Program-made: the position numbers and the translations under genes
Notes under the pieces: generated by a model
What the model saw: the letters and a program-made list of their open reading frames with translations, nothing else
What the model was told of the DNA's origin: nothing
The model's database searches: none
Part shown: one piece after another, positions 9,660-64,000 of the stretch
How positions within the stretch are numbered: position 1 is the first letter of the stretch
Layout: each line of letters starts with the position of its first letter
Source: Acutalibacteraceae bacterium
GTDB taxonomy: Bacteria; Bacillota; Clostridia; Oscillospirales; Acutalibacteraceae
Assembly: GCA_045655905.1 (NCBI GenBank)
Contig: JAZOQF010000193.1
Location: forward strand, 1,102-65,101
Length of the DNA stretch: 64,000 nucleotides
Direction of reading: 5' to 3'

Positions 9660-9688
9660 AAAAAAAGAGAACCCCTTTCGAGGTTCTC
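9660..9688 (-). terminator. intrinsic terminator
   Basis: GAGAACC-loop-GGTTCTC followed by U7 on the minus strand. Confidence 0.75.
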
Positions 9689-10058
9689 AATCCATTAAAA
9701 TTCGCTTGATCTAATTTAAGCTTTCGACCGCAATTCCTGGAGCGCTCAATTCCAATCCAACCAAAACATTGCCGCTTCTTTTATAAATTCCAGAAGCCAA
9801 ACTGAAAATCATATCGCCACCAACGATCTTACAGTTCAAAATTTTCAACTCTTCTGCGGTCGAAAAATCCAACATTGCGGCAAAAGAGCCATCAGACTGC
9901 ACACTGACCTGAACATTTTGCGGCGGGATCTAACAAAAATGCGCGAGGTTAGCTTGTTTTTCCGCGACGGTGCGGGATAATAGCTACTGAAAGTCAATAT
10001 TGTTTGGACATACTTCGTCTTCTGGCATTATTTTTGTTGTTTTTACTGTTGTTTCCAT
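9687..10058 (-). CDS. hypothetical protein (123 aa) with 3 in-frame TAG
   Basis: Extends track ORF 9711-9902 through TAG at 9711, 9930 and 9984 to a TGA at 9687. Promoter 10121-10149. No good RBS is present, so the start (ATG 10058 or 10028) is uncertain. Confidence 0.4.
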
Positions 10059-10120
10059 ATCTTTTGTAACGGAAGATTTGTTTGTTTGTTTTGTTTCCGT
10101 TCTCCTGTTCTCCTACAATT

Positions 10121-10149
10121 ATTATATCGCAATTTGCGGCCGAAGTCAA
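10121..10149 (-). promoter_or_regulatory. sigma70/sigmaA-type promoter
   Basis: Minus strand TTGACT-17 bp-TATAAT. Confidence 0.65.
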
Positions 10150-10173
10150 GTTCTTTTTTACGCCTCTGTAAAT

Positions 10174-10202
10174 TTGACTTTTACAATCTTTTGTGGTATA
10201 AT
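10174..10202 (+). promoter_or_regulatory. sigma70/sigmaA-type promoter at head of packaging/structural operon
   Basis: TTGACT-17 bp-TGgTATAAT, 29 nt upstream of ATG 10231. Confidence 0.7.
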
Positions 10203-10230
10203 TATAATATAAGGATGAAGGAGGAAAGAA

Positions 10231-11232
10231 ATGATAGAATTCAAAACTGCAAAATGTCCGAAGTGCGGCAAAATTGCGGAAATAATTTTCTCAAACAATC
10301 CTCTGGTGCCAGGAATTTGCAATCGTTGTATTTGCAATGAATTGGATGGCGGAAACCTTGAACAAGCAGATTTCTTTTGTAGAACTTATAATTTGCCCTT
10401 TAGACCAGAACGTTGGATCGAGTTGTAGGAAAGATGCGGCGAAGGAGTTTTTAAGCAATACACCAAAGAATTTTTTGAGACAGATAGCAATAATCTTTAT
10501 CGACAGGACGTGACTCCTGATTGGTGGAAGCGAATAAATGAAGAGTGGGCGAATTGCAGAACTTACGAAGAAGTTTTAGCTAAAATTGAACCCATTAAAC
10601 AATCTTTTATTGCGCGAAGCCAAATCAAATGGGGGCCTAACTACACTTTTGAAGAATATGTGCAGTTAGATAGTTTGTTAATTAGCACATTGCGTGCTGG
10701 TGACATTTCTAACCCTTTGCGAATTGATGCTATCAAAAAAGCTTGTAAGATTTCCGTTGAATTGGATAAAGCCATTTACGCTGGCGATAGCAAGGGTATT
10801 AAAGAGTTGTCCAGTTCTTATAGTTCATTTACGAAATCCGCTCAGCTTGACGAAATTATTGCATCAGACAACAATGATGTAATTTCCACTGTTGCGGAGC
10901 TAGCCGACTACATTGAGAAATGCGGCGGCCAGTATACATATTATGACGGTGTTCAGCGCGACATCGTTGATAAAACAATTGCAGATATTAAAGAATATAT
11001 CCGAGTTTTGGTTCAAGACGCGACTGGTTTGAGTGCAACATTGGAAAATATTGCGGAAAATTATAAGCGTAGTGTGGCTACAGCTGCGGATGAAGAGTCT
11101 TTTGCCGCGGTTTCGTTAGAAGAACTAATGAAACAAAATGAAGGAGATAATGAAGTGCTGGATGCCGAACTCGCGGCGGAAAGCCTTGATGAAGACTTCA
11201 TGGGTGCAGAAGACGGAGATGAATATTTTTAA
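10231..11232 (+). CDS. zinc-ribbon protein, positional candidate small terminase (333 aa)
   Basis: Track ORFs 10231-10428 and 10510-11232 share a frame and are joined through TAG 10426. GGAGGAAAG RBS, N-terminal CPKC...CNRC, acidic C-terminus, and a TAATG overlap with TerL. Confidence 0.55.
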
Positions 11233-13016
11233 TGAATACCTCTGATCTTCTTTACATAGAGCCTGAAATTGATGAATATATAAGTTTTTTCAATTCAGCA
11301 AATACAAAAGATGTTAAAATATTGCGGAAAGAGCGCGTTAAAGAAAAACTTCCGCTTTATTTAGAAGCATTAAACACATTCCTGGTTTATCCTGATATTT
11401 TGTCGGACATCATGACTCCCAAAAAGAGTAAGTTCAGTATGTTCTTTGCACAAAGAATTGTATTGCGCTCGATGGCTCGACACCGACAATCTTTTTTAAC
11501 ATTCCCGCGTGCATTTAGTAAGTCTTTTTTGGCTGACTATTTTGGTAACATTAAATCGATGTGTACTCCACATTGCGATGGCTTTGTTGCCGCAGCAACC
11601 GGTAAACAGGCGGCTCAAATCGTTAAACAGAAGTTTAGCGGAGACCTCTGGGTTAAGTTCCCTTTGCTGAAAAACGAAATGCGGCGAAATGGCCCAGTTG
11701 CACCATACATTCAAGGTGAGGACTATGCGGAATTTCGATTCACTAATGGTTCGAAGTTTGACGTAATTGGCGGACACCCTCGTGGTGGCCGTCGTAGTTA
11801 TGGTATTTTTGAGGAGATTATTGAACAAGACCAAACAAAGGTTAATGAGGAACTTATTCCTCTAATGAACTCGCCGCGAACCCAGTTCGACGGCACGCTT
11901 AATCCCCACGAAAAACAAGGGCAAAAGATTTATATCACAACCGCAGGTTATCAATAGACTTTTGCATACGATAAATGTATTGAAACGCTTTGTTACTGTG
12001 CTCTTGACCCTGACAACTATATTTGTTTGGGCGGAAGTTATGTAATTCCTTTGATGCACGGTCGTCTTGAGGAACAAACAATGCGCGAACTTTTCTCTTC
12101 TCCGTCTTTTGACCGAGGAAGTATGGAACGCGAGTATTGCTCAAGATGGTCTGGCGCAAGAAGTGGTTCAATATTTGGAAGCAAAACTATTGATACTTTG
12201 CGCAAGGTTGTGCGTGCGGAATTTAAAAAAGGCAGTCTTGATGAAAAAGAATTTTACGCTATTTCAGCGGATATGGCGAAAGATGGTAGCGCAAATACCG
12301 CAGTAATTGTTTATAGAGTTACGCCCACTGAATATATGTTCAATTATAGGGCAATTAATTTGTTTACAATTAATAGCACAGACTATGAAATTGTGGCGAA
12401 TGAGCTTAAAAAGACAATTATGAACTACGATGCTCGTTTGTTTATTTATGACGCAAACGGTATTGGTGCGGCATTGCGAGACTGGATCAACAAGCCCACT
12501 CGTGATCGTGAGTCTGGAATGACTTTGCCTGGGTATGGAATTATTAATCCTCCTGATAGTGCAAAATCAGACCTGATTACTTACACAAAAGACCGCGAAA
12601 TTTGCTACGAGATTAAATCTGGTGGTAAACAGGGCGAAATGATTCATAAAATATTCTTTTCTCGTCTTAGTAATGGCTCTGTTCGTTTTCTTATTAGAGC
12701 AAATGAGGCGATATTGCGGCTTTAGAGAAATAAAAATTTTTTATAGGCTCCAGAACACGTAAAACGCGCAAAACTTGCTCCATATAAGTTCGCGGATTAG
12801 ATGGAAGAGGAACTTAAAAACCTCATTATCACAGACACAAGCGATAATATTACAAGTACAATGCGAGTTGAAAGACGCAGTAAAAAGATTCAAAAAGACT
12901 TTTTCTCTGCGGCAGAATACGGCATTTATGGCGTGTCCACTTACATTGAACAAAAATATTACGCAAAGAAAAATAAGCCCACATTCCGCTGGACTAATGC
13001 TGTTTTAATAAGTTGA
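11232..13016 (+). CDS. terL: terminase large subunit (594 aa)
   Basis: Three same-frame track ORFs joined through TAG at 11955, 12723, 12744 and 12798. Walker-A-like FPRAFSKSF, Walker-B-like GIFEEI, nuclease-region acidic motifs ISADMA and IYDANG, and a TGA stop. Confidence 0.8.
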
Positions 13017-13026
13017 GGTGAGTAAA

Positions 13027-14553
13027 ATGCCACTTTTTAAAAAATCAGCAAAAAGCGAGCCTCAAATAGATACAGAAAATTTAGCTCGTTTTAAAATCAC
13101 AAAGGCTGGCATACAGTAGATGTATGCTGATGATTAGAAGGTGCGTGCGGCAGCTGGTAAAGCAACCAGCGGCTCTTCCACGCTACGCTCTCTGACCGCG
13201 GATACCTTCACTTCAAACTACTATAACTTGGGTAGTTTGGATATAGTCAGAAAATACTCCAAAGAGGCCTATGATTTTTATCCCGCATATCAGATTTTAA
13301 TTGATTATCTTGCAAATATGTGTTTATGGAAATACATTTACACTCCACGCAAGGTAAAAGATAAGAAATCTGCGGTAAATTTTGAAGAGGTCTATTAGGA
13401 AATGAGCCAGGTAGTTGATGGTATTTCTCTTGAAACTACTGGCCCGCAAATTATAACCAACTTGCTTATCAATGGTGCAGTTTATTTGTATAGTGTTAAA
13501 CACACTTCTTCAAAAACTGTTACAACAATCCAATTGCCTGTTAAGTATTGCAGACCTGTTGGTTTAACCCAGTTCGGAACCTATCTTTATCAGTTTAATT
13601 ATCAATATTTTGATTCTTTGAGCCTCTCTGCAGAAGAACTTTAGGTAGTTATGTCTATGTATCCTTCTGAGATGGCCGCTGGATATAAACTTTATAAGGA
13701 GAATCCTTCTTTGTATCAATGGCAACAGCTAAACTCCAAGTTTAGCGGCGCGATTCTGCTGAATGATGATGGTTTCCCTACCAAGTTAAGAGCTTTGTTA
13801 AACATTCTTCACTACAACGAGTATCTGGAGAATGAATTAACCAAGAGCCAGCAACAGCTTGATAAAATCATTTCTCACAAAATTCCCACTTGGCAAGATC
13901 AATTGCTTATGGGAATGGAAGAAATGGCTTCGTTACACAAGTCTATTGCAGACAGGCTGTCAGTTAATAAGCACCTTAAACTTGTTACCACTTTTGGTGA
14001 TATGGGTGTTTTACCTGTTGGTAAGGACGACACCAAAGAAAATAAGACATTGAGCAACGCATATGATGCAATATTCAATAATGCGGGCGAAAATGCTCAT
14101 CTTTTCTCTGGAGATTTAAAGGAGTCGGTTGAATTTGCTTCAAAAAGAGATCAATCAATCGTTCTCAAATATGTAAATTAGATTGCAAATTATTTTAATC
14201 TGGTTGTAAATAATTTGTTTAATTTTAAAGGCTATCAATGTGACATTCAAATTTTGCCAATTACAATTTATAACTACAGTGATATGATGGAAATGTACCG
14301 TCAGTCTGCCACTCTTGGTGCGGGCAAGCTTGAGTTTATTGTTTCTACTGGCACAAAACAATGTCATATTGCCGATAAAATTGAACTTGAAGATTATTTG
14401 CGATTGGATAAACTTAAACCTCTGTCTACTTCTTACACACAGACTGAAACCGTTACCGAAACAGAGGAAGTGGTTGAAGAACCTGTTGTTTCTCCCGAAG
14501 AAGAGAAAGAGGAAAACACAACTGAAGTGGAACAAGAGGTAGTAACAGAATGA
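13027..14553 (+). CDS. portal protein candidate (508 aa)
   Basis: The ATG at 13027 and four same-frame track ORFs are joined through TAG at 13117, 13135, 13396, 13642 and 14179. It lies directly after TerL, has an acidic C-terminus and ends in TGA. Confidence 0.55.
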
Positions 14554-16001
14554 TAAGAATACCAACCAATGTTCCCGCTTTTATTCAGTAGGTCGAGGAT
14601 GCCGGCTCTGGCAAATATTCTAAGGCAAAACTTAGCGTATTTTATCAGGGTCGTACGGCCGATAACCGCATTTTTACAGAGCAGTTTTCCAATGAATTAC
14701 TGAAAACTTTACCTCTGACTCCTGTTGTTGGTTATTTTTCAAAAGAAAAAGACGACTTTAAGGGACACAATCCTGAACAGTATATTTATGGTGTGGTTCC
14801 AGAGTCCGCTACAATCTCTTTTGAAGAAGACGATGCAGGACATAAATTTGCGGTTGTTGATGTCATTCTTTTTACTGAGAGAAATGACAATATTGGCGAA
14901 GTTGCGAAAAAGATTGTTGGAAAACAACAGTCCTTGGAACTCAACAAAAACAACCTAAAATATAAGATTAATAGAGACCATTTTGGCCGCTTCGAAAGTC
15001 TTGAGTTTATTTCTGGTGAATTTGTTGGTTTGAGTGTACTTGGTGATGATGAAAAACCCGCATTTCCTGGGTCTCACTTCTTTACCGCTGAAGATGCTCC
15101 TGAACTTTGCACAAAGCTTGAAACATTCTTGCAGATGCTGAATGATGATGGAGGCAATATGGAAACTTTAGAGATCAAAGAATTCGAAGGACCTCTTGCA
15201 AGTTTCATTGAATGGACTGCGCAAGAGACTGAAGAAGCAATTTATGCGGCTTTGGCCCGCAATAATGTCTACGGCTACATTCTTCAGAACACAAGTTCCT
15301 ACGCTATCGTCCGCTGCTACAATGAAGCAACAAGAGCTGCTGAAGACTACAAGTACCCCGTTACAGTTAACGAAGAGTGCGTTGCAGTTCTTGGCGATCC
15401 TGTTCGAGTTTACGGTCGCTTCTACACAGAAGAGGAGATCGAAACCACCGAAAGCAAAGAGATCTTTGCCGAGGAGGAAAAGAAGGAAGAGGAAGATGCG
15501 GAGAAAGAACCTGTTGAAGAAACTCCCGCTGAAGAGACTCCTGAAGAAGAGAAAACTTCTGAGGAGAAAACTGAAGAGGAGAAGTTTGCTGAAGAAAAAT
15601 CTACTGAAGAGGAAGAGCCTTCCGAAGAAAAATTCGTTGAGAAGGAAGAGGAAGAGGAAACTCCTTCCGTAACAGAAGATGACCCCGTAGAAGAAAAAGA
15701 AGAAGACAAGCGAGACGAAGAAGAGGAACGTGTAGAAGATACCGCAGATACTCATTCCGCCGCATTGTCTGATAAAACAGAAGGAGAAGAACTTCATGGA
15801 TTTACCGCATCGGTAGATGGATCTACCCCAGAAGCAGTAAAGTTCTCTAAAGAAGAACTTGTAGATGCTTTGGCCGCGGCGCTTAAGATTGTCATGAATG
15901 ACAATGATGGAGTTGTTCCCGTTGTAACCCGTTTCGTAGAAACTACTCCGGCTTATGATGAAACCAATCCGGAGCATGTAATAAAAAAATATTCTAAATG
16001 A
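14550..16001 (+). CDS. head scaffolding / prohead-protease-like protein with Glu/Lys-rich domain (483 aa)
   Basis: ATGA overlap with the portal gene, TAG at 14589, same frame as track ORF 14793-16001. Contains a long EEK low-complexity segment typical of scaffolds. Confidence 0.5.
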
Positions 16002-16015
16002 GGTGCTAATTTAAT

Positions 16016-16516
16016 ATGATTACTCGTTTAATGCCTAAATTTAAGGTACTTGAGCCTAGCAATCTGACTGGTCTTAGAAATGGCCACGTGCTCGCTCAGA
16101 TGCCCGTTGCAGCTGACATCACCGTCAAGACTGTAGGTGAGCACAAGTTCATCGAGAATGGTCTTTTTGTTGGCCTGAATGCAGAAGGCAAGATTACTAA
16201 TCTTGACGATGCTACAAGTAAGCAGGTTTTCGTTCACTTTGACGAAGAGCTCTCCACTATTCTGGATGCTGCTTGCTACTATGCTACTCCTGTCGAGGAG
16301 TCTGAAGAAACTTATATCCGTGCCGTAGCTATGTATGTTGGTGACACAGTTGTAACTGACAACTATGCTGGCGAGCTTACTACTGCTAAGTATGCAAAGG
16401 TTGTTGACGGTGTTGCTACCCTCCAGACCGCTGCTGATGAGAGCTCCCTGTTTATCGCTAAGGCTACCACTCTTCCCACTGGTGAAGCAGCTGTAGAATT
16501 AATGCTCTACAAGTAA
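16016..16516 (+). CDS. hypothetical head protein (166 aa)
   Basis: Track ORF with no TAG. GC3-rich codon usage like the adjacent capsid gene. Confidence 0.65.
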   Translation: MITRLMPKFKVLEPSNLTGLRNGHVLAQMPVAADITVKTVGEHKFIENGLFVGLNAEGKITNLDDATSKQVFVHFDEELSTILDAACYYATPVEESEETYIRAVAMYVGDTVVTDNYAGELTTAKYAKVVDGVATLQTAADESSLFIAKATTLPTGEAAVELMLYK

Positions 16517-16540
16517 TTTAAATTGAGAGGTATAATATAA

Positions 16541-17554
16541 ATGGCTACTGTAACTGAATTAAAGACTCTGATTAAGAGTGCTCTTACTCCCGCATCCGCT
16601 AATTTCAGCGCAGACAATGCACTGGTTGAGGCTATTTGCGAGACTTATGACCTCCGTAACGCTAGTGCTCGTGAGATCCGCGCTCACCAGGCTGAGGTTT
16701 TTGCTCTGATTGAGGAGCAGATTGAGGCTGTTCTGCCTAAGGCAGTTGAAAACATTGTAGGCGGCTTTGCTGAGGTTAAGACCTTCGCTTATGACGCTGA
16801 GCCTGTTTTTGAGCTGAAGGGTATGGGCAAGGCTCGTGCTCGTATGGGTATCGTTCCTGGCGCACGTGCTGGTATTTACAAGGCTAGACGCCTTGACAAC
16901 AAGTATGTTTCCGTTCCTGTAAAGGTTGAGACCGTTGCAGTTATGGTTACTCTTGAGGAAATTCTGCTTGGTAAGATGTCCCTCGCAGAGCTCATGGCTA
17001 ACATTGCTAATGGCTACGCTGAGCTGATTTACATCAATGCTATTAAGGCTCTCCGCACCGCTAAGACCCTTGCTCCTGCAGCTAACTGCAAGACTGGTAG
17101 TGGTTTTGATGGCGCTGCACTTGATGGCCTGGTAAGCATCGCTAGAGCTTACGGTTCTCCCGTTATCATGGGCTTCCGTTCTGCTCTGTCTAAGATCAAC
17201 AATGGTGCAGGTTGGGATAATGTAACTCCTAACATCTCTGCAGCTGATGCAGATGACATCCGTAGAGCTGGCGTTATTGCTATGTATCACGGTGTTCCCG
17301 TAGTTGAGCTTCCTAACTACCTGGTTGACGAAACTAATTCCGGCTTCGTATTCAGCGAGGGCGATATCTTCGTTCTTCCCGCTGAGTCCCGTCCTGTAAA
17401 GGTTGCTATGAAGGGTGACCTTGTAATCGTAGAGAACCAGCATGCTACTGGCTCTATGGAGCAGCAGGCTCACCGTTTGATGGGTGTAGGTCTTGTACTC
17501 GCTAACAATGTTTGCGTTTACACTGACAGCTCCATCTCTGGCGGTATTGCTTAA
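16541..17554 (+). CDS. major capsid protein candidate (337 aa)
   Basis: Track ORF located after the scaffold gene. It has a strong RBS, distinct high-expression-type codon usage, no TAG, and hairpin 17568-17593 downstream. The long antisense ORF 16559-17605 is rejected. Confidence 0.6.
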   Translation: MATVTELKTLIKSALTPASANFSADNALVEAICETYDLRNASAREIRAHQAEVFALIEEQIEAVLPKAVENIVGGFAEVKTFAYDAEPVFELKGMGKARARMGIVPGARAGIYKARRLDNKYVSVPVKVETVAVMVTLEEILLGKMSLAELMANIANGYAELIYINAIKALRTAKTLAPAANCKTGSGFDGAALDGLVSIARAYGSPVIMGFRSALSKINNGAGWDNVTPNISAADADDIRRAGVIAMYHGVPVVELPNYLVDETNSGFVFSEGDIFVLPAESRPVKVAMKGDLVIVENQHATGSMEQQAHRLMGVGLVLANNVCVYTDSSISGGIA

Positions 17555-17567
17555 TTGATTTAAAATT

Positions 17568-17593
17568 GAGGGTGAGTGAAATATCTCACCCTC
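17568..17593 (+). terminator. hairpin after capsid gene (attenuator or terminator)
   Basis: GAGGGTGAG-8 nt-CTCACCCTC with no T-run. Confidence 0.4.
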
Positions 17594-17616
17594 CCCAAAA
17601 CACAAGGAGAAAATAA

Positions 17617-18096
17617 ATGGCGCGCGAAACCCAAAATTATTATGATATTGTAAAACTTTGTAAAGGTGGGCTGGTTCTTAATTTGCCTTCTCACGACTCC
17701 ACTGTTCTTTCTCGCAGAATTGAGTTCGCTCATAATGTAGATAAGATCAGAGTTCCTCGTACTCATGCACTCGGTATTTTTATTGATGGCACTCTTGAAA
17801 GAATGTATAAGGAAGGCTACTTTAAAGTAGAGCCCGAAGCTTTTTTTAACGCAGAGATTGAGGAGATTTTCTTTCCTATTCAGGGAGTTGCAGAGACCTT
17901 TGATGATGAAATAGTTACCAAAGCTCTGATGTCTGGTAATAGAATGAAGATTAAGGAGATTATTGGCACAAGTGCTGTTAATCGCGACAAGGTATTAAAG
18001 ATTTCTAAGGAAATTCAGGCCGATCTATCCGTTGCAATGATTAAAGATCTTGAAAAGATTTTTGGGGTAGAGTTAATGGTCGATGATGCAGAATAA
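17617..18096 (+). CDS. hypothetical virion protein (159 aa)
   Basis: Track ORF with AAGGAG RBS and TAA stop. Confidence 0.65.
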   Translation: MARETQNYYDIVKLCKGGLVLNLPSHDSTVLSRRIEFAHNVDKIRVPRTHALGIFIDGTLERMYKEGYFKVEPEAFFNAEIEEIFFPIQGVAETFDDEIVTKALMSGNRMKIKEIIGTSAVNRDKVLKISKEIQADLSVAMIKDLEKIFGVELMVDDAE

Positions 18097-18562
18097 TTAT
18101 TGGACTAAAATATTATATCCGGTTTTTCTCGCTGGCATAGACAGTTGTACTTTTGCTTCTTTAAGTGACCAAGACCTGTAGCAAGAACTTGATTTTCTTG
18201 CGCAGCGTGCTGTTGCACAGTTCAAATTTCCTCATATTAATTTGAGCTATGGTTTTGATGAAGAGCTTGAAGACAGCGGCACAGAAAAGGGCTATTACTT
18301 TAATTCTGAGATAACTTTCAAGGAAATAAATGTAATAGTTGCTTGGATGCGCGCGTTTTGGCTTGAGTTCCAACTTGCAAGAGAGAAAAACTACCAAAAT
18401 CTTTATGCAGATAAAGATGTAAAAGCATTTTCAAGTGGTAATTTAATCAGTAGTATTTTGAAAGCATATGAGAGCGCTGTAAAGCACGCTCGAAAAGTTG
18501 AGGAAGAATACGGTAGAGTTACCATTGATGGTGTGCCTGCGATTGGAGCGATAAATGTCTAA
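18083..18562 (+). CDS. head-tail connector-like protein (159 aa)
   Basis: ATG 18083 is in frame with track ORF 18242-18562 through TAG 18179. The function call is from position only. Confidence 0.45.
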
Positions 18563-19361
18563 ATTTGGCACCTTCCGCAGAAAACATGAAGTGTCTGAGT
18601 CCTGTCAGCAGAAATATGAGAGTTCTTTCATTTTTGAAGGCACTGGTTCGGCAGTGATTCATCACTTTAGACCCAATAGAAATAAGAAGGCCGCAATTAT
18701 CTTAACCGATAAAGAAGGCCCCGACATTTCTATTATTTTCACTTTGAAAGAAAATAAAGAAGATATAAACCTTCAAAAAGGTGACTATTATTCTTGGGAA
18801 GATAAAATATATTTTGTTTATGAAAATGTCGACCTTGTAAGAGAGGCGAATTTCATTAAACAAAAGAGCTATCAATGTAATGTGCAGTTTGAAGTTGCGG
18901 GAAAAACCTATTATGGATACTTCGTTTCTTCGTTACAACGTTACGCGGACACGCTACTTCAAAAAAATATTGTTATAAGCGATACCGACAAGCCAGTGCT
19001 TATTTTGCCGCACTCCGATTGGATTTGCAAAGACAAGAAGATTGTGATTGGTAAAAAGCCTTATCGTATTGTTTCTTATGATGATATGACAAATGCGGGA
19101 ATTGTTTATGCATCTCTTGACCGCGATTTCATTTCTGATGAAGGTGATCCAGCAGTTGATGTGAACAGAGTCCGCGCAGGTGATGAAGTAACTGTTGCAA
19201 TTTGCAATGGTTATTTTGATACAGATTTTGAAGTAGAAATTATTGATCTGTCTCTTGATAGCGTAACTTTTAGAATGCCTTTTGGCATTGACAAAATTAA
19301 AGTTTTCTCGCGAGATGAAGAAGGAAACAGTGTTGTTAAAGAAGTGGAGGTTACTTTATAA
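18555..19361 (+). CDS. hypothetical virion protein (268 aa)
   Basis: Track ORF overlapping its neighbours at both ends. Confidence 0.65.
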   Translation: MSKFGTFRRKHEVSESCQQKYESSFIFEGTGSAVIHHFRPNRNKKAAIILTDKEGPDISIIFTLKENKEDINLQKGDYYSWEDKIYFVYENVDLVREANFIKQKSYQCNVQFEVAGKTYYGYFVSSLQRYADTLLQKNIVISDTDKPVLILPHSDWICKDKKIVIGKKPYRIVSYDDMTNAGIVYASLDRDFISDEGDPAVDVNRVRAGDEVTVAICNGYFDTDFEVEIIDLSLDSVTFRMPFGIDKIKVFSRDEEGNSVVKEVEVTL

Positions 19362-19843
19362 TGTTCGAGAGAATAGAAAAAGCACTTTTCGCCATTAGAA
19401 GCGTTATTCTTAATGACGAGGAGATCCGCAAGCTGATTTATAACACTGAGTTTAATCCTCTTGCGGGCGAACTCCCCTCAATTGAGGATACGCTACCTTA
19501 TGTTACAATGAAACCATTTCTTACCTTTGATAATGAAGAAGGATACACAAGAAATGTTGAGTTGAACATTTATGTAGCACTTGGCAGCAGCGAAGATGAT
19601 GTTGCTTCTGCCGCTGTTAGAATTAATATCGTCGTTAACCGTGACAAGTGGGAGATTAAAGATGCAATCCGCCCGTTAAGAATTGCGGATAAGATTGTGG
19701 ATTTATTGGATATGGAAACACATATCACTTCAAATCCTCTTATGTTCCATTCTGTTACTGAATTGGTTGTTGATGATAAATTAGCTGGATATAGCGTACT
19801 GTTCGATATTGCGGATGGTATTGCTACAATAAATAAGTTTTAA
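19361..19843 (+). CDS. hypothetical virion protein (160 aa)
   Basis: Track ORF with a TAATG overlap. Confidence 0.65.
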   Translation: MFERIEKALFAIRSVILNDEEIRKLIYNTEFNPLAGELPSIEDTLPYVTMKPFLTFDNEEGYTRNVELNIYVALGSSEDDVASAAVRINIVVNRDKWEIKDAIRPLRIADKIVDLLDMETHITSNPLMFHSVTELVVDDKLAGYSVLFDIADGIATINKF

Positions 19844-19857
19844 GAGGTAAACAATAA

Positions 19858-20616: not shown

Positions 20617-20636
20617 TCCAATAATAAAAATTTTTC

Positions 20637-20665
20637 CCTCAGGAGCTTAGCCTCCTGAGGTTTTT
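20637..20665 (+). terminator. intrinsic terminator
   Basis: CCTCAGGAG-loop-CTCCTGAGG followed by T5. Confidence 0.85.
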
Positions 20666-20679
20666 ATTTCCCCAAAAAC

Positions 20680-20708
20680 TTGACAAATAGAACAAAATAT
20701 GTTATAAT
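20680..20708 (+). promoter_or_regulatory. sigma70/sigmaA-type promoter inside the structural operon
   Basis: TTGACA-17 bp-TGtTATAAT. Confidence 0.7.
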
Positions 20709-20732
20709 ATAAATATAAGATGGAGGTTGTCT

Positions 20733-21446: not shown

Positions 21447-21452
21447 TGAACC

Positions 21453-54167: not shown

Positions 54168-54616
54168 TTGTCTCCTTCTTTTTCCAGAGCTTTGCGGGCT
54201 TTTACCGCAGTTTTGTCTGCTAAATTGTTATATTCATCGTCTTTATGCGCTTGTGCTTTTAATATTGTTACTTGTAATTGTTCGTATAGTGATAGCATTT
54301 CTTCCCAAAGGTCTTTGTTTTTAACCGGTTCGCCTGACATATTTTTCCATCCGTTGCGACGCCAGCGCGCATACCATTTTGCATCGAAGCAGTTGAAAAC
54401 ATATGCGCTGTCTGTATAGATAGTATGAGGAGATGCGGGAAAAGAGGCTAAATGTCGAAGCGCATTAACCACTGCCAGCATCTCCATGCGATTTCCAGTT
54501 GTGTTACGCTCTGCCCCTGATAAGATTGTAGGGGGAGAGTCGTTGTTTATGATTATGGTAGCCCATCCTCCAATTTGGGACTTGGAGGAGTGGGCGCCGT
54601 CAGTGTAAATTATCAT
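54164..54616 (-). CDS. rnhA: ribonuclease HI (150 aa)
   Basis: Track ORF with motifs IYTDGA, GNRMEMLAV, IYTDSAYV and the WRRNGWKN..G.PVKNKDLW region. Confidence 0.8.
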   Translation of the reverse strand: MIIYTDGAHSSKSQIGGWATIIINNDSPPTILSGAERNTTGNRMEMLAVVNALRHLASFPASPHTIYTDSAYVFNCFDAKWYARWRRNGWKNMSGEPVKNKDLWEEMLSLYEQLQVTILKAQAHKDDEYNNLADKTAVKARKALEKEGDK

Positions 54617-56754
54617 GAAGAGAGGGGATACAAAGAGCCAGTTTTCTCGATATCACCATCGGAATTTCGTCTAACAATTTGTATACATATATTTCCATTT
54701 TCTGCTGTTACAAAAGAAAGCTCGTAAGACTTACCGCCTTTGTCAGAAAAAAACAAAGACTTTAATCCATTTGTTTTATTACCTATAGAAAGTAAATTTG
54801 GCGCAGATGGAACTATATTATGATATAAAATTTTATTGTTTTCGTCCTCTTCTGTACCTATTTTCCACCCCACATGAGAATAGGCGTCATCAAATCCTAA
54901 TCCTGTAACGATTACAGAAGGACTCAATGCAAGTAAGCTTGTTTCGCCGATTGTTTGTTCCCCTACAAAAAGAGAGGGGGCGTTTTTTATTACTTTTTTA
55001 GTTAATTCAGTGTAGGCGCTGGTTAATGTTTTTGGCCATTTAAAAACAATTTTTCCTTTTATTGTTATTGTTACGGTACTGTTACCTACTAATACTATAT
55101 CTTTTATTTCTGTTTCTGAAGCTGGGGCATTGAAGATATTAGAAAAAGCAGTATTCATATTGCCAATTCTAGTTTCTGCAGTATATTTAACAGAAGTATT
55201 GTCACTCTATCCCCTGTCAATATTTTTTATTTTTATCTTTTTTTGTTTTTCTTTTCCTAAAGTTTCTGAGGTTTTTGTGTCTGTGTTTATATCATATTCA
55301 ACGTCATATTGTAGGAAATAACATCCATATTTTTTATAATAGGTTTCTAATCTCCCATCATAGGTAGCTGGTTCAGTAATTAATAAATCAAAATCCTAAC
55401 CAAGAATGGTAGACACATTTATATAATTACTGTATCCTCTGAATGTTTTAGGAGGGGTAATTTCTAAAGATAAACCATTCTCTTTATTGGTTGTAATGGT
55501 AAAATTGTCCTCACCATTTTTTACTTCCTCGCCATTTACTTTTGTTAATTCCCAGACTCTCGAACCAACAATTATAGAAGAAAATACTGAAAAAGGACCT
55601 GGCAGCAATAGCCCTGGACCATAATAGACTATACCAGATTCATAAATAAGTTCAAATTCTGCAATTTCTTCATCCGGTAATTCTATGGTTTGATTGTCCG
55701 ATACAGAGAAGTCATCTAGTCTAGAAGAAATCATACCAGCATGCAATTCAGAGAACGGAGATTCCTTTTCCCCAAGAGCAACACGCTCTCCATCAATTGG
55801 AAAAATACCGTTTTCGGATAGCTCTAGATTTGCAGGCTCTATATATTTTGCCTATAGCGTTGCATCAACCTCAAAACCGCTGTATGAAATTGAAAAATCA
55901 AAATTACAATCATTTTCTGTAGTGCCAGGCCCCTTTATACTAGCTTCGACTGTAAAATACACTTCATCAGCTGAAGAACCTTCATATCTTCTATTGCGTG
56001 TTATAATTTGTACATTCATGGCTACACCGCCATCGTTATATTGATATAACGTTACTGTATTGGCGGCGGTTTCGCAATTGACAAAAATGTCATCTTCTAA
56101 TTCGCAAGCTAAACTGAGGTACCCGCTGGTACCATTTGTATTTGCTTTAAAATTCTTAATACAGAGCATGCCGTCACTAAAATTGGAAATATCAAAGGTT
56201 TTTGACCATCGATATAAATTTTCTATCTAGTCGTCTTTTGTGCGAGGCACTGAAATATTAAAATGCCTTTCTATTTGATCAGGCCTAGTAGTAAAAGTTA
56301 ATGCTTCTGATAGGTCATTAAAGAACATTCCACCACCGCTTTTAGATTCTATATTTATTTTATCTTTGACTTCGGCGCCCGCTATTGCATCAAAAATAAT
56401 TTTTTGAGACGTGTCTTCAGGTTTTGTGCCTGTAGCTGTAATACACGCATTACCAGACTCATCATGGTGCATTTTTAAAACGCCCATGCTGTTTTTCATC
56501 ACAATGCAAGGCAATTTTTCGTCACCTACAACACCCATTTTTACAAAAGACGGAGAATTGTCACTCTAGGTTAATGTAAGTTCTTTTGGTGTTAATTCTG
56601 CCTTGGGGCCGTTGTTTGAAGTTAATGTAATTTGCTCCGGTGCCAGTTCTGTTTTAGGAGGTTCTGTACTATTTTCTTGTGTATCTGCAGTTACTAAAAC
56701 TTTTTTTGTTTTTAAACTTGGCGCCTGAGCATCGCTATAAATTTCTAATGCCAT
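54613..56754 (-). CDS. large hypothetical beta-rich protein (713 aa) with 5 in-frame TAG
   Basis: Five same-frame track ORFs (56566-56775, 56227-56538, 55852-56169, 55396-55746, 54613-55158) are joined through TAG at 56566, 56227, 55852, 55396 and 55207. I translated the gaps by hand. ATGA overlap with rnhA. Confidence 0.6.
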
Positions 56755-56758
56755 TTTA

Positions 56759-57193
56759 TTACCCCACAAGTTCAACTCTATGCCACTTATTCATAACACT
56801 CATTCCAAAACAATTCACAATTGTCTTATAGTTCACGAGCCTCATTAGATTAGCATAAGTCAAACAAAAATTTTTATTTTGACACGACATTCTAAATTCT
56901 TCATGTCGCGGTTCATCCATAATTAAAATATCAATTAAGCATCTTGCCGCAATTAGCTGCAGTTGCAAAAACAGTTCGCCGTCCTTTACAAAATCTGGCA
57001 ATATACACTCAAAAACAGTATTTTCCCGCAATTTCGCAACATCTATTGTTTCAAATGCCTATTCAATTTTGCTATAGTAGTGTTCATAATGTTCCAGATC
57101 GTCATCATCCAATGGAACAATAATCTGCACCACTTCACATTTTTTAAGTGGCCGTTTTACCACCACATTTTTTTCAAAATTAAACAATTTCAT
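56759..57193 (-). CDS. hypothetical protein (144 aa)
   Basis: ATG 57193 with a GGAGAA RBS, TAG at 57059, then the frame of track ORF 56759-57031. Confidence 0.45.
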
Positions 57194-57941: not shown

Positions 57942-58592
57942 TCATATTTCAACACCCTCTAATTCATAAATATCTACAAAACATTCTTTTGGTAACGTGT
58001 AGGTGCCATCTACATTTTGTTTAATATAAACTATTATAGCCGGTGTCATTATACCTGGAAGATAATTATCATTTTGACAATATAATGGCACAACACGGAA
58101 CTCTTCGCTACTCGAGCTAAAATATGTTACGTAATGAGTACCTGTGTAGTTTCCATCAGTGCCATTATACACGTCCCCCGTAAATAAGTAGTACGATTCC
58201 CATACTACAAAGATATCTACGTCAATATCGTCACCTTCTGCCATATAGGGGACATCATCCGGCGTGCCAAGCACAACTTTTAGGATGCGACGGGTATCTT
58301 CTGCTTCCCACAGTTCTATACCATCACCGTAATTCGAAAATTCATGCGCGCGATAAATATTACCGTTTATGTCAATTTCATCGCCTTCATAAAGCTCACA
58401 ATAATCTATTAAATTTATACGCTTAAAAAGCTTCCATCCGGCAGAAGAAGAAGTTTTACCCTCTTCAACGCCAGCGGCATAAACTTCATCAACCCCCGCC
58501 GCAATTCCGTCGAGTGTTAAAGGTTCTTCTCCACCAGTTTTTGCTCTAATCGCGTCAGCAATAGCTGTCATTTTTTCATTAAAAGTTGCCAT
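57942..58592 (-). CDS. tail fibre / receptor-binding-like protein (216 aa)
   Basis: ATG 58592 (TAATG overlap) with AGGAGG RBS. The N-terminal MTAIADAIRAKTGGEEPLTL motif is one I recall from fibre-type proteins of gut phages. Confidence 0.5.
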   Translation of the reverse strand: MATFNEKMTAIADAIRAKTGGEEPLTLDGIAAGVDEVYAAGVEEGKTSSSAGWKLFKRINLIDYCELYEGDEIDINGNIYRAHEFSNYGDGIELWEAEDTRRILKVVLGTPDDVPYMAEGDDIDVDIFVVWESYYLFTGDVYNGTDGNYTGTHYVTYFSSSSEEFRVVPLYCQNDNYLPGIMTPAIIVYIKQNVDGTYTLPKECFVDIYELEGVEI

Positions 58593-59635
58593 TACCAAGA
58601 GCCTCCTAAAATTTCTTCTTCAATCGTAATTTTAAGTGCGGCAAGAGCGTCATCAACATATTGTTTAGTAGTAGCATGTTCGCTTTTAGTGGGGGTGCCA
58701 ACAACTAAGATCCCCTTGTCTCCTCTCTCTGCTATACTCCAAGATGATGCCTATGCGAACGCTATGGGCTGCATCTTTTGTTTGCCACCCTCGATGATAT
58801 AGGCTTTTGTGCCCGACTCGGTGGATTTATTAAGTTTGCCGTCAAGAGGAATCTTGATTATTGCGAGAGGCTATTCTTGTTCTGATGTATAGAGCGCCAA
58901 AACATTTGCCTCGCTATCAAACTCCAAACGCAAGCCGTAAATCATTCCAGTAGCATAACCAAGCGCCTCACCAATACTGTTCCAAACACCACCAGACTGC
59001 ACAAGATTTGAGCTGCCCTCTGTGGGCAGAACATCAGCATTAGCAACAAGATTTTCTACATACTGACTTGCAAATTCCTCTGCAACTTGAGGAACCCAAC
59101 TATAAACTCCACCAGAGCTGATTAGTCGCAAACTGCCTTCAGTCGGAATTTCGTCAACGGGAATGTTCTTAATTTGTTCAAGAACATATTTTTCCAATGT
59201 AGCGGTCTGCTCACTGATCTGGGTCTCTAAAGCCGCAATTTCGTCATCAGTGTAAACTTTTAGTTCAGCAACTTTTTCATCAACATACCCCTTTGTTGCA
59301 TTAGGATCAGCAGGACGACGAGGATGACCAATAGTGCCCTCTCTTATAATAGACGTGAAAACTGGGATCTCTGTCGCAGTAGTAGAAATTTCATCTCCCG
59401 CAATAACACCAACAAGTAATTGCGTGCCATTTTTCACATAAGGAATCGCGGCTTTTCCGTCTTTAATTTCCTCGTCCCAATAATATTTATTCCAAACAAA
59501 ACGAGCATACAAGGGTAAAGAAGACCAGTCTTCGTCAAAAACAAAAGAAAGAACATAATCCTCATTTTCAGCGACAATTCCCTGTCCCTCGTAAGATGCT
59601 ATCCTGTTATTAATTTTTACTTGTAATTCTGGCAT
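58592..59635 (-). CDS. tail fibre-like protein (347 aa)
   Basis: Track ORF 58871-59635 extends through TAG 58871 and 58751 to TAA 58592. Contains a coiled coil and a repeated PTEGS..L(V/I)SSGGV motif. Confidence 0.5.
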
Positions 59636-59684: not shown

Positions 59685-59693
59685 TTTTATTAA

Positions 59694-59942
59694 TTATAAA
59701 TAGTAGCGAATTCTTTCTGGTATATTTTTTATGGCCTCAGGATTAAGCGACTTGATTTCAGAAAACCACTCCATAATTTCGGGGTCGTCTACTTCTCTGC
59801 CGCGCGTGACTGCCTTTTCCCAAATATCAAATGCGGCAAGAAGAGGTTTTCTCAATTGTCGAAGAGCGTCTTGTTCCGCAGATGTTCCTTTTAATAATTC
59901 GATACTATTGCTATCAATTGGCTTTCTTTTTATAATTCTCAT
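59694..59942 (-). CDS. small protein, possible fibre assembly chaperone (82 aa)
   Basis: Track ORF with an ATGA overlap to the upstream fibre gene. The function call is from position only. Confidence 0.5.
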   Translation of the reverse strand: MRIIKRKPIDSNSIELLKGTSAEQDALRQLRKPLLAAFDIWEKAVTRGREVDDPEIMEWFSEIKSLNPEAIKNIPERIRYYL

Positions 59943-62900
59943 AGACTCTCTCCATTAGTAAAATATGTCTAAGTGATTGTTATCTATGGACCACCTGTTG
60001 TTGTACCATCTTTTGATATTGTACTTTCTGTTCCGTTTGGCCATACTGTATAAGAATTTGTCATTGTTATTTTTTCTCTGTCGCCGTTACTGCGATAAAT
60101 AGTTTGGTTTAAAAGATCAACATATTCCTGACTACCTAACTTAATTGAGGTCTCTGGCGCCATTACCGACTCCTCAGAGCCATTAAACGATCTAATACCA
60201 TAGAAAGTAATTTCACTATTGCCATTGTTCTCAATACGACTTACTAATGTCTTACTGCCACTAACAACATTGTCGGGTGTTACCCACTCAGAAACATCGC
60301 TACTCTCAAAAGTAGTTTCTAAAATTTGTGCCTGCCATGGAAGCGTTTTTAAAAAGTCCACTTTACTCGTTAAAGTTTCAAGGTCTGAAACAATAACAGG
60401 AATTTTGTCTTCTATAAGCTGTATTCTTAATTCTTGCTCTTCAATTAAAATCTATAAATCTTCTAAAGATGCAAAAGAATAATAAGTTTGTCGGACGGTC
60501 AATGTGGGCGCGCCGACTTCGTAAGAGGGGATTATTTCCTCTTTTCCATTTTCATCTTCTATTAACAAATAAGAATTGCTGTTAGTGCTGTATATGGTTT
60601 CAGTAGGTGAGCCTGCAGTTTTTCCATAAAGAACTAATGCAAGAGCGTTCCAATTTGCTTTCCAATCGTCGAGCGTGGTGTACTTTGAATTTCTAACATA
60701 AAAGTTGTAGTCGCTATATCCTCTTACCATGTAGAAAGTTTTATCTTCACTTAATGTCTCGTCATATTTATATTCAGAAAGCATAAAGTTTGCTGAATAA
60801 GGACTCCCCACCTAAAAGAGTTTATCAATATAAAGCGAAAAGGAGACTACGCCACTTTCTATTTGTGTTGTTGTTTTCAGTTTGTCAGCACTAATTTTAC
60901 TTGGAAGACTAGTGCCTTTGAAATAATCATATAAAGTAACAACGTTTGGAGAAGAGAAAATTAAATACGACCACCTGGGAATTTCTATACCTTCGTCATG
61001 ACCTAAAATTTCTACTTTATTTTCCCTAGCGCTGTTTCCATTAGAATCTGTGCATCTCACACTTTTAAAACGCGCATGCTGGGGGCCTTCGCTCTCGTCA
61101 AAGACTGTATCACCATCAATTCTTAATACGCGGGTAGTAGGAAGAACGCTTTCGGGAAGTTCACCGTACCCCGTTGGAATATTTATACCTGTTGTGGAAG
61201 AAGTGAAAGTTCTTGTGGCTTCATATTCAGATAAGCCACCGGTATAGTGCAAATCAAGAATTAATTTATTAATATCATCAATTCTATTTTCTAACTCTTG
61301 TACTTCCTCGCTTGAGGCTCCTGAGCCGCCACCGCCTCCTTGGCCAATATTCTTAACTTCGCTAATTACCTTGCCATTGGCAGTAAGTTTTAATGTTTTT
61401 GTTGCACTGTCATATGACATTGCGTCTGCTTTTTCTTTATCTAAAACATCAATGTCACTTCCTATTTCGTCAAGGGCAGAAGATAAACCAGCTATTGCAT
61501 CGATTGAATGCTAATTGGGATCATATCTTCCTCTAAGTTCACTATGTTCTGTAATACTTACAACATTATCAACATATTTTTTTACTCCGCCAGAGGTTAT
61601 AAGATATTCGCTATCGTCTCTGGGTTCGTCATCTATTTTTGCTAAAAAATAGGATTGATATATAGCGATGCTACTATTAGCACCACGCCAACCAAAAGCT
61701 GTTTCTTTTCCGCCATGAAATACTGTATATGTAAACTTATTGTCGTCAGTATAGGAAGCACTACCGGTATTACCACCAAAATCATATGCTATTCTATCTG
61801 TCTCAAAAGTGATTACTCCAGGACCAGTTAATTTAGCTATACCTTGTGGGATAAGAAGTTTGCTTTTAACATTTCCGTCAGCATCTGTGCTTTCAATATA
61901 AGACAAACTTGCTCCTGCAGCAACTCTTATTTCATAAACAGTTGTTAATGTACCGTCGACTACATAAGCACCATTTGCTGTCTCTCTTGTGGTAAAAAAT
62001 GAGTCGCGGCGGCTTGACATCTCTTCCTCGGTTTCTCCACGAGAAAAAATTTCAGGGACACCTTCCAAGTTATTTGTAACTACTTCTTGAATTTGTGCTG
62101 TCGCGGCTTTTAAGTATTCCTGCACTGCACCAACAGTAGGGACAGTAGTTTTAGACTCTTCTTGTCCGTCCATGGACATACTTTCGGCAATTTCAAATTT
62201 GTAATATCTGATGACTTTTGCAGCAATGTTGTCAGTGTCCATGCCACTTGCCGGAGATACCTAAATTCTGTAGCCATCATCAGTTTTGATTACTTCGTAT
62301 TCTAAATAAATTTCTTCATAAGAAGTGTCGTCCCCTTTTACAAAAAATACACTTATTTCTTCATTTGGATCTGCTGTTATACTCTTTGCCCAGGGGCTAT
62401 TTTGATGCTTCGTAAAGTCAGACAACGGAAAAGAATTCAACGTAGCATAACAATAAGAAGAAGGTATATTAAAAATTGTCTGTCTCGGAGCCAATCTTGA
62501 AGGAGTTTTTGTAAAAGTAATTGTACTATTCCATAAGTCTTGCTCAGTTGGCAAATAATAACCACCGGCACTATCTCTAAACAATGTAAAAGTAGGAATT
62601 CCGGCATCAGCATTTTTTACAAAAATTTCATCTTCATGCGGCGCAAGTTGCTAAGGCTCATCATAATAAGCAATTTCTCCAGATTTTTCAATAACTTTGC
62701 CATAGCTATAAAATCCAGTGTTATTGGGGATATTTTCATAAATGCTTGTGCCAAGATTGTCACGATCAAAAATAATATACAAGGGAAGGACGGCAGTTTT
62801 ATCAATTGTTTCCCCTATTCCATAAGTATCTATTACATAAGCAAATATGGAACCGCTAGCACCAGATAAAACTATTTTGACTTGATGCAGATTCTCTCTG

Positions 62901-63298
62901 TCGGGGTCTCCTTCATAAAACCAGCTTTCAAAATTTTGACAAGCTCCGGCTTCTTCTTCTCTTGCCTTATTGTAAAAATAATTTTTAGGCTTAAAAGCGT
63001 ATGCTTTTTCCACTATAGGAACAAGCTCACCGCCGTTATCCACTTTTACAACTTCAATTAAGTCGCCTGTATAAAAACCACTATATTTTCCGTAAGGATG
63101 AACGAACGCATATTCGCCATATTCTTTACTAAACTGAATATAGCCATGCTGTAATAAATCTCTGCTAATTCTTTCCGAGTCTTTTCTGACCTGCGCAACT
63201 TCGCGGTCAATAATCCGCATATTCGCGTTAATTGTGCTGCCCCAGTTTGTGGAGCCTTGCGAGGGCAAACCAAGTTTCAAATTCTTTGTCTGAGCCAT
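59939..63298 (-). CDS. large tail fibre protein (1119 aa) with 7 in-frame TAG
   Basis: Six same-frame track ORFs are joined through TAG at 62651, 62261, 61511, 60812, 60452, 59984 and 59969. The true stop is TGA 59939. Fibre-type N-terminus MAQTKNLKLGLPSQGSTNWGSTINANMRIID, plus Gly-rich and coiled-coil segments. Confidence 0.65.
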
Positions 63299-63708
63299 TA
63301 CTCATCCACCTCGTCGCTGTCTTCGCTCTCTGCCTCCTTTTCTTCAAGGCTTCCATCTAATTCAAGAGCAAAAACATATTCATTAATCAACTCTTCAAGA
63401 GAGCTAACTCCTTCGCTTTCAAGCAATGTTTCCCAAGTCGCGGGAAAAGTGTCTTTAATGGCTTTTTCCACCCAAGCAAGTTTTTCTGCACCACGCCCAG
63501 AGCCAGTAAAATGTTTCTCGGCAACTTTAATGCAAAAAACGATGAAATTCTCGACCATCTCAGCTCTCTCCTTATCGGAGGCACGATAAAACTTGATAGC
63601 GAAAAACGCCGCGATTCCGGCTACCGCAACAGCGGCAGCGACAGCAATCCAAAGTCCGAGGTTAGACGACTCTTGAACTACTGCAGAAAGGGTCAATAAT
63701 TCTTTCAT
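63298..63708 (-). CDS. holin-like membrane protein (136 aa)
   Basis: Track ORF with a single N-terminal TM helix, then AEKHFTGSGRGAEKLAWV, which resembles the LL-H holin family as I recall it, and an acidic tail. Confidence 0.45.
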   Translation of the reverse strand: MKELLTLSAVVQESSNLGLWIAVAAAVAVAGIAAFFAIKFYRASDKERAEMVENFIVFCIKVAEKHFTGSGRGAEKLAWVEKAIKDTFPATWETLLESEGVSSLEELINEYVFALELDGSLEEKEAESEDSDEVDE

Positions 63709-63722
63709 TTTTTCACCTCACA

Positions 63723-64000
63723 TTACAAATGTAATGTTCTTTCTTTTATTTCTTCTGTACGCCCCTGATTCCAATACTGGCTACCGATATAACCGCAAGT
63801 TCGACGAGCAACATTCATTGTGTTTTGGTCTTGGTTATGGCAATTAGGACATTCCCAAATAAGCTTACCATCTTCATCCTCAACAATTACAATTTCACCG
63901 TCATACCCACACTTCTGACAATAGTCACTTTTGGTATTCAGTTCGGCATACATAATATTCTCATAAATATACTAAATTACCGCAATTACTGCGTCCAAGT
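63723..64000 (-). CDS. nrdD: anaerobic ribonucleoside-triphosphate reductase, C-terminal part (runs off right edge)
   Basis: Zinc site CQKCG...CPNC and glycyl-radical motif RRTCGYIG. The frame stays open upstream of the track start through TAG 63972 to the window edge. Confidence 0.7.

Follow-up and report, generated by a model that had tools for sequence, protein, structure and literature searches.

Probable reassignment of TAG to glutamine in a contig of a large, probably SPbeta-like siphophage

The window analysed here is a 64,000-nucleotide stretch of contig JAZOQF010000193.1 (positions 1,102 to 65,101 of the forward strand; GenBank assembly GCA_045655905.1, filed under an Acutalibacteraceae bacterium); it is phage DNA with a guanine-plus-cytosine (GC) content of 0.39, and our subject is the codon TAG, which lies within many of its genes and ends none of those we counted. 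The original prediction held that TAG is read as a sense codon throughout the middle and late genome from position 9687 onward; the open reading frame (ORF) at 9687-10118 on the minus strand is doubtful, however, and the first convincing TAG-containing gene starts at 10231. This is a plus-strand gene for a 333-residue protein of family phrog_3314 in the position of a small terminase (10231-11232; one TAG at 10426), followed on the same strand by the large terminase subunit TerL (11232-13016, 594 residues; four TAGs at 11955, 12723, 12744 and 12798), the portal (13018-14553, 511 residues; five TAGs at 13117, 13135, 13396, 13642 and 14179) and a 483-residue head-associated protein that is syntenic with the YonD_N gene of relatives (14550-16001; one TAG at 14589). 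A block of seven plus-strand genes running from the head core through the connector to the tail tube (16016-20616), including the gene in the major capsid position (16541-17554), holds a single TAG at 18179 and matches PHROG families of virion structural proteins. Beyond it, still on the plus strand, lie three tail-associated genes with no assigned function (20727-23713; 239, 512 and 241 residues with two, six and three TAGs respectively, the second being 21453-22991), the tape measure (24134-29272, 1712 residues; 15 TAGs and neither a TAA nor a TGA), a 437-residue protein in the distal-tail position (29256-30569; two TAGs) and a 768-residue protein in the Tal/baseplate position (30572-32878; six TAGs), the last two having no family match.

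The genes described next lie on the minus strand. A RuvC-like Holliday junction resolvase of 235 residues (32918-33625; TAGs at 33203, 33197 and 33023; phrog_827 and phrog_159) adjoins a replication and recombination block (33805-54616) that is annotated from PHROG and is sparse in TAG. PolIII alpha (35459-39373, 1304 residues), DnaB (42648-44186) and a GyrB-like protein (49307-51166) contain none; RecJ (39831-41585), a GyrA-like protein (47045-49303) and a 417-residue UvrD/Rep-type superfamily 1 (SF1) helicase (52451-53704, phrog_1967 DNA helicase; TAG at 53129-53131) contain one each, and the block also encodes an exonuclease, a primase, a Sak4-like protein, a ligase and an RNase H. The late/fibre block that follows comprises a 720-residue protein with no assigned function (54613-56775; five TAGs), a 347-residue tail-protein-like gene with weak PHROG minor-tail and hyaluronidase matches at its C-terminus (58592-59635; two TAGs) and a fibre-like protein of 1119 residues (59939-63298; seven TAGs). 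The TAG counts originally given for TerL, the portal, the tape measure, the Tal-position protein, the fibre and the 720-residue protein are all correct; the names Tal and fibre are drawn from position and size in the first case and from size, position and Gly-rich/coiled segments in the second, neither protein having a PHROG or Pfam match. A Pfam search of the structural proteins of the window, capsid and tube included, reached no model in the copy searched, PHROG returned nothing for six of the structural genes, a PDB sequence search with the RuvC-like protein gave no match, and a search of IMG/VR with the Tal-position protein found no relative.

Gene-level counts were made over 45 genes comprising 17,425 codons between 10.2 and 63.8 kb, with TAG taken as sense and TAA and TGA as stops. 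These genes contain 72 in-frame TAGs, of which two to three hinge on the choice of start codon, distributed among about 24 of the 45; the earlier figure was about 75. There is no in-frame TAA or TGA in any of the merged genes, compared with approximately 1,222 expected for an unconstrained frame from the off-frame frequency, the two off-frames of the same genes containing 1,181 TAA and 1,262 TGA codons (115 and 116, respectively, for the tape measure). Gene termination is by TAA in 31 cases and TGA in 14, and never by TAG, with a four-base ATGA-type overlap at seven junctions and a one-base overlap at five. At a density of about 4 per 1,000 codons TAG is a regular sense codon with no use as a terminator. 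All of the gene-level claims of the original prediction, that adjacent ORFs lie in one frame and are parted only by TAG, that the merged genes are free of TAA and TGA, and that they end in TAA or TGA with short overlaps, are reproduced from the sequence.

The same picture emerges when the interval from 10.2 to 64 kb is called under different codes with a single simple caller based on codon usage, whose training set was limited to ORFs open under all of the codes. Code 11 yields 91 genes with a mean length of 186 amino acids and covers 85.4% of the interval, whereas code 15, with TAG as sense, yields 62 genes with a mean of 313 amino acids and covers 97.6%; the standard code does shatter this genome, as had been proposed. 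Reading TGA as sense (code 4) gives 85 genes with a mean of 194 amino acids and 82.0% coverage, and reading TAA as sense gives 76 genes with a mean of 214 amino acids and 80.4% coverage, both coverages lying below that of code 11. Treating TAG as sense lengthens the longest plus-strand ORF from 469 to 1713 codons, compared with 479 for TGA and 535 for TAA. A count of stop types in six-frame-against-six-frame high-scoring segment pairs (HSPs) was dropped, as off-frame, antisense and border-crossing HSPs, arising from the DNA-level similarity of the relatives, swamp the signal, and the gene-level counts, the code comparison and alignments to distant standard-code proteins were substituted for it. 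Because the counts, the stops and the code comparison agree, we consider it confirmed that TAG is a sense codon in this phage DNA, the pattern lying far beyond chance.

Whether family members end at the TAG positions, the outcome that the original prediction had named as counting against it, was also examined, and they do not. The TerL of Geobacillus virus E3, which uses the standard code, aligns in a single HSP over residues 29-566 at 36% identity and spans all four TAGs, and at least 116 of 120 TerL homologues from a large protein collection run through all four sites; four homologues are C-terminally truncated, just one of them ending beside a TAG site. The caller behind this public collection translates TAG as Q, as its tape measure protein P0121 and the relative L058 show, and its TerL column counts are used here for read-through only and not for amino acid identity; the same caution attaches to P0121 itself, which is identical to the tape measure of the window with Q at all 15 TAGs. 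Staphylococcus aureus GyrA, from the PDB, aligns with the GyrA-like protein over 8-474 (E = 1.8e-86), and residue 338, where the TAG lies, falls inside this alignment. For RecJ, residues 15-577 of 584 are covered by the PHROG profile, and phrog_2739 matches the portal over residues 73-505 (E = 4.7e-44) across three TAGs. Homologues of the tape measure belong to Pfam PF10145. TerL itself is represented in PHROG only as halves, phrog_15503 (residues 14-219) and phrog_24618 (residues 373-581), both labelled as of unknown function, and these families are probably fragments produced by code-11 annotation of recoded phages.

To which amino acid TAG corresponds was addressed by tabulating what lies opposite it, comparing codons rather than database translations in 40-odd related loci drawn from IMG/VR, JGI, ENA and Logan. 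The clearest evidence comes from the sole TAG of the helicase, which falls at the Q of motif II: the window reads VDEF-TAG-D where SF1 helicases have DE(F/Y)QD, the TAG lies opposite the Q of the GajB motif IDEYQD, and one relative (L024) has CAA at this column (192). CAA or CAG is likewise found in the nearest relatives at TerL columns 242 and 498, at portal columns 40 and 388 (the latter CAA in five relatives) and at RecJ column 136, in three of three relatives at GyrA column 338, and in relatives at column 34 of the gene at 53694-54167 and column 33 of the gene at 18083-18562.

These individual columns are complemented by a likelihood test that describes every candidate amino acid by a substitution profile of its own, derived from the same alignments. 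Glutamine ranks first at the TAG columns, with serine 28.7 and lysine 38.7 nats behind; the lead over serine is 11.7 nats when columns are normalised, and in a bootstrap of the 44 columns glutamine wins 81% of replicates (raw) or 95% (column-normalised). At the 14 columns where the nearest relative is at least 50% identical, glutamine is found at six (43%) and serine at one, and in control counts from the same alignments genuine Gln codons are matched by Gln in 36% of cases and genuine Ser, Lys and Glu codons in about 5-6%. The TAG columns of the tape measure are polar (K, S, Q, D and E) and depleted in L, I and Y, so that leucine and tyrosine are excluded. A reciprocal analysis of a relative that carries a tRNA with a CUA anticodon, tRNA(CUA), also puts glutamine first. 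On these codon comparisons glutamine is the best-supported meaning of TAG, as originally proposed.

The original prediction had noted that the decoding machinery is not in this window, and our searches agree: within the 64 kb no tRNA was found by ARAGORN at default settings, no Rfam family was matched, and there is no match to the suppressor tRNA family of the relatives; no release factor was found by its GGQ motif in the window or in any of the loci read, and none of these loci yielded an RF2 or an aminoacyl-tRNA synthetase. The relatives, in contrast, offer a candidate source. The closest TAG-recoded relative in IMG/VR, 3300045988_176179, is 103 kb long and is 80% identical to the window in the N-terminal part of TerL; upstream of its synteny with the left end of the window it contains small ORFs, a tRNA cluster and then a module of FolD, dUTPase, PhoH, NrdD and tRNA(CUA). 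A tRNA(CUA) was found at five TAG-recoded loci, every one in which this module was readable: L043 (from 3300045988_176179; 5889-5978, minus strand, within the FolD/dUTPase/PhoH/NrdD module), the IMG/VR contig L056 (4966-5055, minus strand) and the ENA/Logan contigs L062 (3563-3652), L064 (297-386) and L065 (920-1010), these three on the plus strand. The contigs of L056, L062, L064 and L065 open up only with TAG as sense. The source contig of the window is about 66 kb, against about 93-110 kb in the relatives, and the tRNA module probably lies in the part that is missing.

The tRNA(CUA) of the relatives scores 52.7 bits on the Rfam tRNA model and has compensatory changes in nine of 23 pairs among four distinct sequences. 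It is 90-91 nucleotides long with a class II long variable arm (4-5 bp stem), the 1:72 pair is always weak (G.U, A-U or U.U) with U72 invariant, the discriminator base is A or G, and the anticodon loop is CUCUAAA. As a separate observation on the neighbouring nucleotide-metabolism genes, the NrdD gene of L043 (1102-3903, minus strand) is seemingly split by a GIY-YIG-type endonuclease ORF (2278-2928), which suggests an intron or homing element, and this NrdD also has an in-frame TAG.

TAG is not used evenly in the window. Expressed as a share of glutamine-type codons, TAG/(CAA+CAG+TAG), its use is 0.155 in the packaging and portal genes, 0.157 in the tail, tape measure and baseplate genes and 0.184 in the minus-strand fibre block, compared with 0.039 in the replication and recombination genes (p = 6e-7 against the late genes); 32918-54616, that is the replication block together with the RuvC-like gene, contains ten TAGs in 7,008 codons. 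The head-core to tail-tube block departs from the other late genes, with a share of 0.026 versus about 0.16 (Fisher p = 0.018) and one TAG in 1,501 codons where flanking late genes have 5-8 per 1,000. Recoding throughout the middle and late genome, as first described, therefore stands as regards the sense reading of TAG and is modified as regards its use, which is heavy in the packaging, tail and fibre genes and light in the replication genes, with hardly any in the head-core and tail-tube genes. The latter are presumably the most highly expressed, and avoidance of TAG in them suggests that UAG is decoded more slowly or with more leakage than the usual glutamine codons and that its use carries a cost.

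We think it very probable that the contig, most of which the window covers, comes from a large SPbeta-like siphophage of Firmicutes, about 100 kb in size, and that this phage has reassigned TAG to glutamine (code 15) with a phage-encoded suppressor. Under this proposal the phage would bring its own amber-suppressor tRNA(CUA), encoded outside the window in a nucleotide-metabolism and tRNA module with NrdD, PhoH, dUTPase and FolD, and the expressed tRNA would out-compete host release factor 1 (RF1) at UAG. The TAG-free genes, namely the small genes of 1-10 kb and those of PolIII alpha, DnaB and GyrB, would be translatable by the unmodified host, and the packaging, tail and fibre genes, in which TAG makes up 15-18% of glutamine-type codons, would not be completed until suppression is established. 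The result would be a translational gate on late functions.

A number of points weigh against this proposal or parts of it. The Q residues seen in protein-collection homologues at the TerL and tape measure columns may themselves be code-15 translations, so that the codon-level comparisons alone are independent; most of the TAG sites are at variable, surface-type positions, so that many columns are little informative. Serine comes second in the likelihood test, and the tape measure has Ser-rich columns (92 and 1124). As the window has no suppressor tRNA, one is proposed for this phage by analogy with the relatives, and the long variable arm of their tRNA(CUA) is unexpected for a tRNA that is charged with glutamine. 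RecJ, GyrA, the helicase and RuvC also need TAG decoding, so that a gate between early and late genes would not be clean, and the timing of the late genes is presumed from gene class.

An alternative to which we give little credence is that TAG is sense and specifies another residue, most likely serine (or else leucine or tyrosine), carried by a class II suppressor tRNA. SerRS recognises tRNAs with a long variable arm regardless of their anticodon, and by the identity rules it tolerates a variable discriminator base, which LeuRS and TyrRS do not; the length and the 4-5 bp arm stem of the relatives' tRNA(CUA) favour this alternative, and its A or G discriminator speaks against LeuRS and TyrRS. 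The rank of serine in the likelihood test and the two Ser-rich tape measure columns also favour serine. Against this, TAG lies at the invariant Q of helicase motif II, glutamine leads serine in the likelihood test both raw and normalised, and the relative that itself carries the tRNA(CUA) ranks glutamine first in the reciprocal analysis. Genuine Ser codons show Q at 6%, and if TAG were serine the probability of finding six or more Gln among the 14 best-matched columns would be about 1e-4. For leucine and tyrosine, the depletion of hydrophobic and aromatic residues at the tape measure TAG columns is a further argument against.

A second alternative, which we also judge improbable, is that TAG does encode glutamine and that the decoding is supplied by the host, either through a host suppressor tRNA or through a host code in which TAG is sense. 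This would account for the want of any tRNA or release factor in the 64 kb, and suppressor tRNAs have been detected in only about 40% of TAG-recoded genomes (Borges et al. 2021/2022). However, wherever the NrdD/PhoH/dUTPase module of a TAG-recoded relative was retrieved it came with a tRNA(CUA), this module lies outside the window, and there would be no reason to expect the depletion of TAG in replication genes and small early genes if the host itself decoded TAG. No bacterial lineage is known to read TAG as glutamine.

Two further explanations can be set aside as having a negligible probability. That the TAGs are true stops, within decaying pseudogene fragments or purposely split genes, is compatible with the fact that the code-11 fragments are still ORFs and that PHROG families match the halves of TerL, but this reading is already refuted by the counts, as interruptions are by TAG 72 times and by TAA or TGA never, the fragments always continue in frame (for the 16 pieces of the tape measure the chance is about (1/3)^15), homologues align across the sites, TAG terminates no gene, and the pattern recurs, at other sites, in related contigs that come from independent samples. 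A sequencing artefact in which modified cytosines are miscalled as T, turning CAG into TAG, would mimic a TAG-to-Gln code exactly, but 226 CAG codons remain, TAG density differs four- to six-fold between gene classes on the same molecule, the independent assemblies of the relatives have TAGs of their own and a matching tRNA(CUA), and the many TAG columns that are non-Gln in relatives fit evolved sites.

If TAG is glutamine, the shape of the relatives' suppressor requires comment. By the classical identity rules a long variable arm marks Leu, Ser and Tyr tRNAs and not those for Gln. Either a class II-shaped body is charged with glutamine, or a second tRNA does the decoding, or decoding is partly ambiguous. 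It is a tentative and, on balance, unlikely suggestion that this tRNA(CUA), a 7/5 cloverleaf with a class II arm and a weak 1:72 pair, is a new kind of suppressor that nonetheless delivers glutamine by an unusual charging route, or that decoding is ambiguous between Gln and Ser; candidate routes in the former case would be non-discriminating GluRS (ND-GluRS) with GatCAB, GlnRS if it accepts a class II body, or a factor supplied by the phage. The amber suppressors of Escherichia coli include supE (Gln), supD (Ser), supF (Tyr) and supP (Leu), and the CUCUAAA anticodon loop of the relatives' tRNA is that of supD- and supF-type suppressors. In E. coli, as we propose here, suppression works by competition between a tRNA(CUA) and RF1 at UAG; the E. 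coli suppressors, however, are single-mutation host alleles giving partial read-through of rare stops, and in the window TAG is a regular sense codon.

TAG-recoded (code 15) phages of gut and rumen are reported to have been described by Ivanova et al. in 2014, and the NCBI taxonomy includes a taxon named Caudoviricetes code 15 clade. Borges et al. (2021/2022) described 473 alternatively coded gut phages, including crAss-like, Lak, Agate, Sapphire and other clades, in which TAG is sparse in replication modules and heavy in structural modules, a pattern they read as a translational gate on late genes. The window shares with these phages the alignment of TAG with Gln, a concentration of TAG in structural and late modules that are scattered along the genome, variable use in replication genes, low GC, a preference for TAA as terminator, tRNA(CUA) in the relatives, and codes 11, 15 and 4 within clades; the closest, compared by description only, are the Agate phages, which are about 127 kb long, were found in cattle, pig and tortoise and have multiple recoded structural modules. 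It differs in the long variable arm of the suppressor of its lineage, in that the loci read contain no RF2 or aminoacyl-tRNA synthetase, and in the scarcity of TAG in the head core, which is not stressed by Borges et al. Phage phAss-1, a 136-kb gut siphophage of the proposed Phassvirus, likewise reads TAG as Gln (Babkin et al. 2023; PMC10607447), with TAGs in the genes for TerL, portal, tape measure and fibre. It is a distant relative, with a TerL 27% identical to that of the window, and its tRNA(CUA) lies within a large tRNA cluster; this Sup-CTA is an ordinary type I tRNA of 77 nucleotides, with U1-A72 and G73, that resembles tRNA-Gln, whereas those of the window's relatives are 90 nucleotides with a long arm. 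For crAss-like phages, Peters et al. (2022; PMC9523058) report metaproteomic validation of code 15.

Code-15 recoding is therefore not novel, the phenomenon, the mixed-code clades and the late-gene bias all having been published, as the original prediction recognised for TAG-to-Gln recoding in gut phages; the window extends the known set by one lineage of Firmicutes phages. Its relatives, which include TAG-recoded lineages and, among the more distant ones, mostly lineages that read TGA as Trp, agree with published work in which phage codes change between closely related lineages and recoding acts as a gate on late genes. There is also a practical consequence for annotation: under the standard code the genome falls into 91 short ORFs, the terminase, portal, tape measure and fibre genes resemble pseudogenes, and translation table 15 is needed. 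What goes beyond confirmation is the avoidance of TAG in the virion genes that are presumably the most highly expressed and the class II-shaped suppressor, which bear on the efficiency of UAG decoding and on the route of charging; in our overall assessment the class II-shaped suppressor tRNA is the only lead beyond confirmation.

The phage group to which the window appears to belong is the SPbeta-like siphophages (SPbeta, Geobacillus virus E3, Brevibacillus Sundance and the Lactococcus 949 group). The TerL of the window is of the YonF type, its Sundance homologue being annotated as YonF, the structural module appears to have the same gene order, and the window likewise encodes its own PolIII alpha, DnaB, primase and other replication proteins. 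Syntenic relatives with 40-76% identity carry the Pfam domains YonD_N, YonB, YomW and YomU_Tube. Unlike the window, however, the SPbeta-like phages just named use the standard code, and the window's own capsid and tube proteins have no Pfam match.

Among the relatives the codes are mixed. The lineages nearest to the window (L001 and L058-61) are TAG-recoded, with genes in L058 ending in TAA (20) or TGA (seven) and never in TAG. Most of the more distant relatives (L002-L019 and L027-L040) have in-frame TGA opposite residues of the window that are W (66 cases), Y (31) or F (28), consistent with code 4, and their tape measure proteins of about 1,600 residues open only with TGA as sense. The only clearly standard-code relatives seen are distant SPbeta-like phages. 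As judged from these alignments, the clade holds both TAG- and TGA-recoded lineages. Over 10231-21446 the window has 14 TAG positions and L001 and L058 have 10-12, with no position in common between the window and either of them; single TAG codons therefore come and go rapidly.

The left 10 kb of the window differs from the rest. The region from 1 to 10200, in which small ORFs are mostly on the minus strand and there is no confident TAG-containing gene, has a GC content of 0.44-0.46 versus 0.35-0.40 elsewhere in the window, and its AT skew is reversed. The ORF lists for this region contain no long gene under any code, and its sole PHROG match is at 4237-4626 (minus strand). Relatives whose synteny with the window holds on either side of the interval 3.1-10.2 kb share no protein similarity with it inside that interval. 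Recoding of TGA or TAA in 1-10 kb was considered and rejected, as no reassignment opens long ORFs there. Probably the region is a hypervariable early-gene block to which the standard code could apply. Within it, a single-frame alignment of 376 amino acids to the relative L003 at 874-1974 on the minus strand crosses stops at 883 (TGA) and at 1330, 1501 and 1855 (TAA), and could represent small paralogous genes arranged in tandem in a single frame, or else one gene that has been interrupted in the window.

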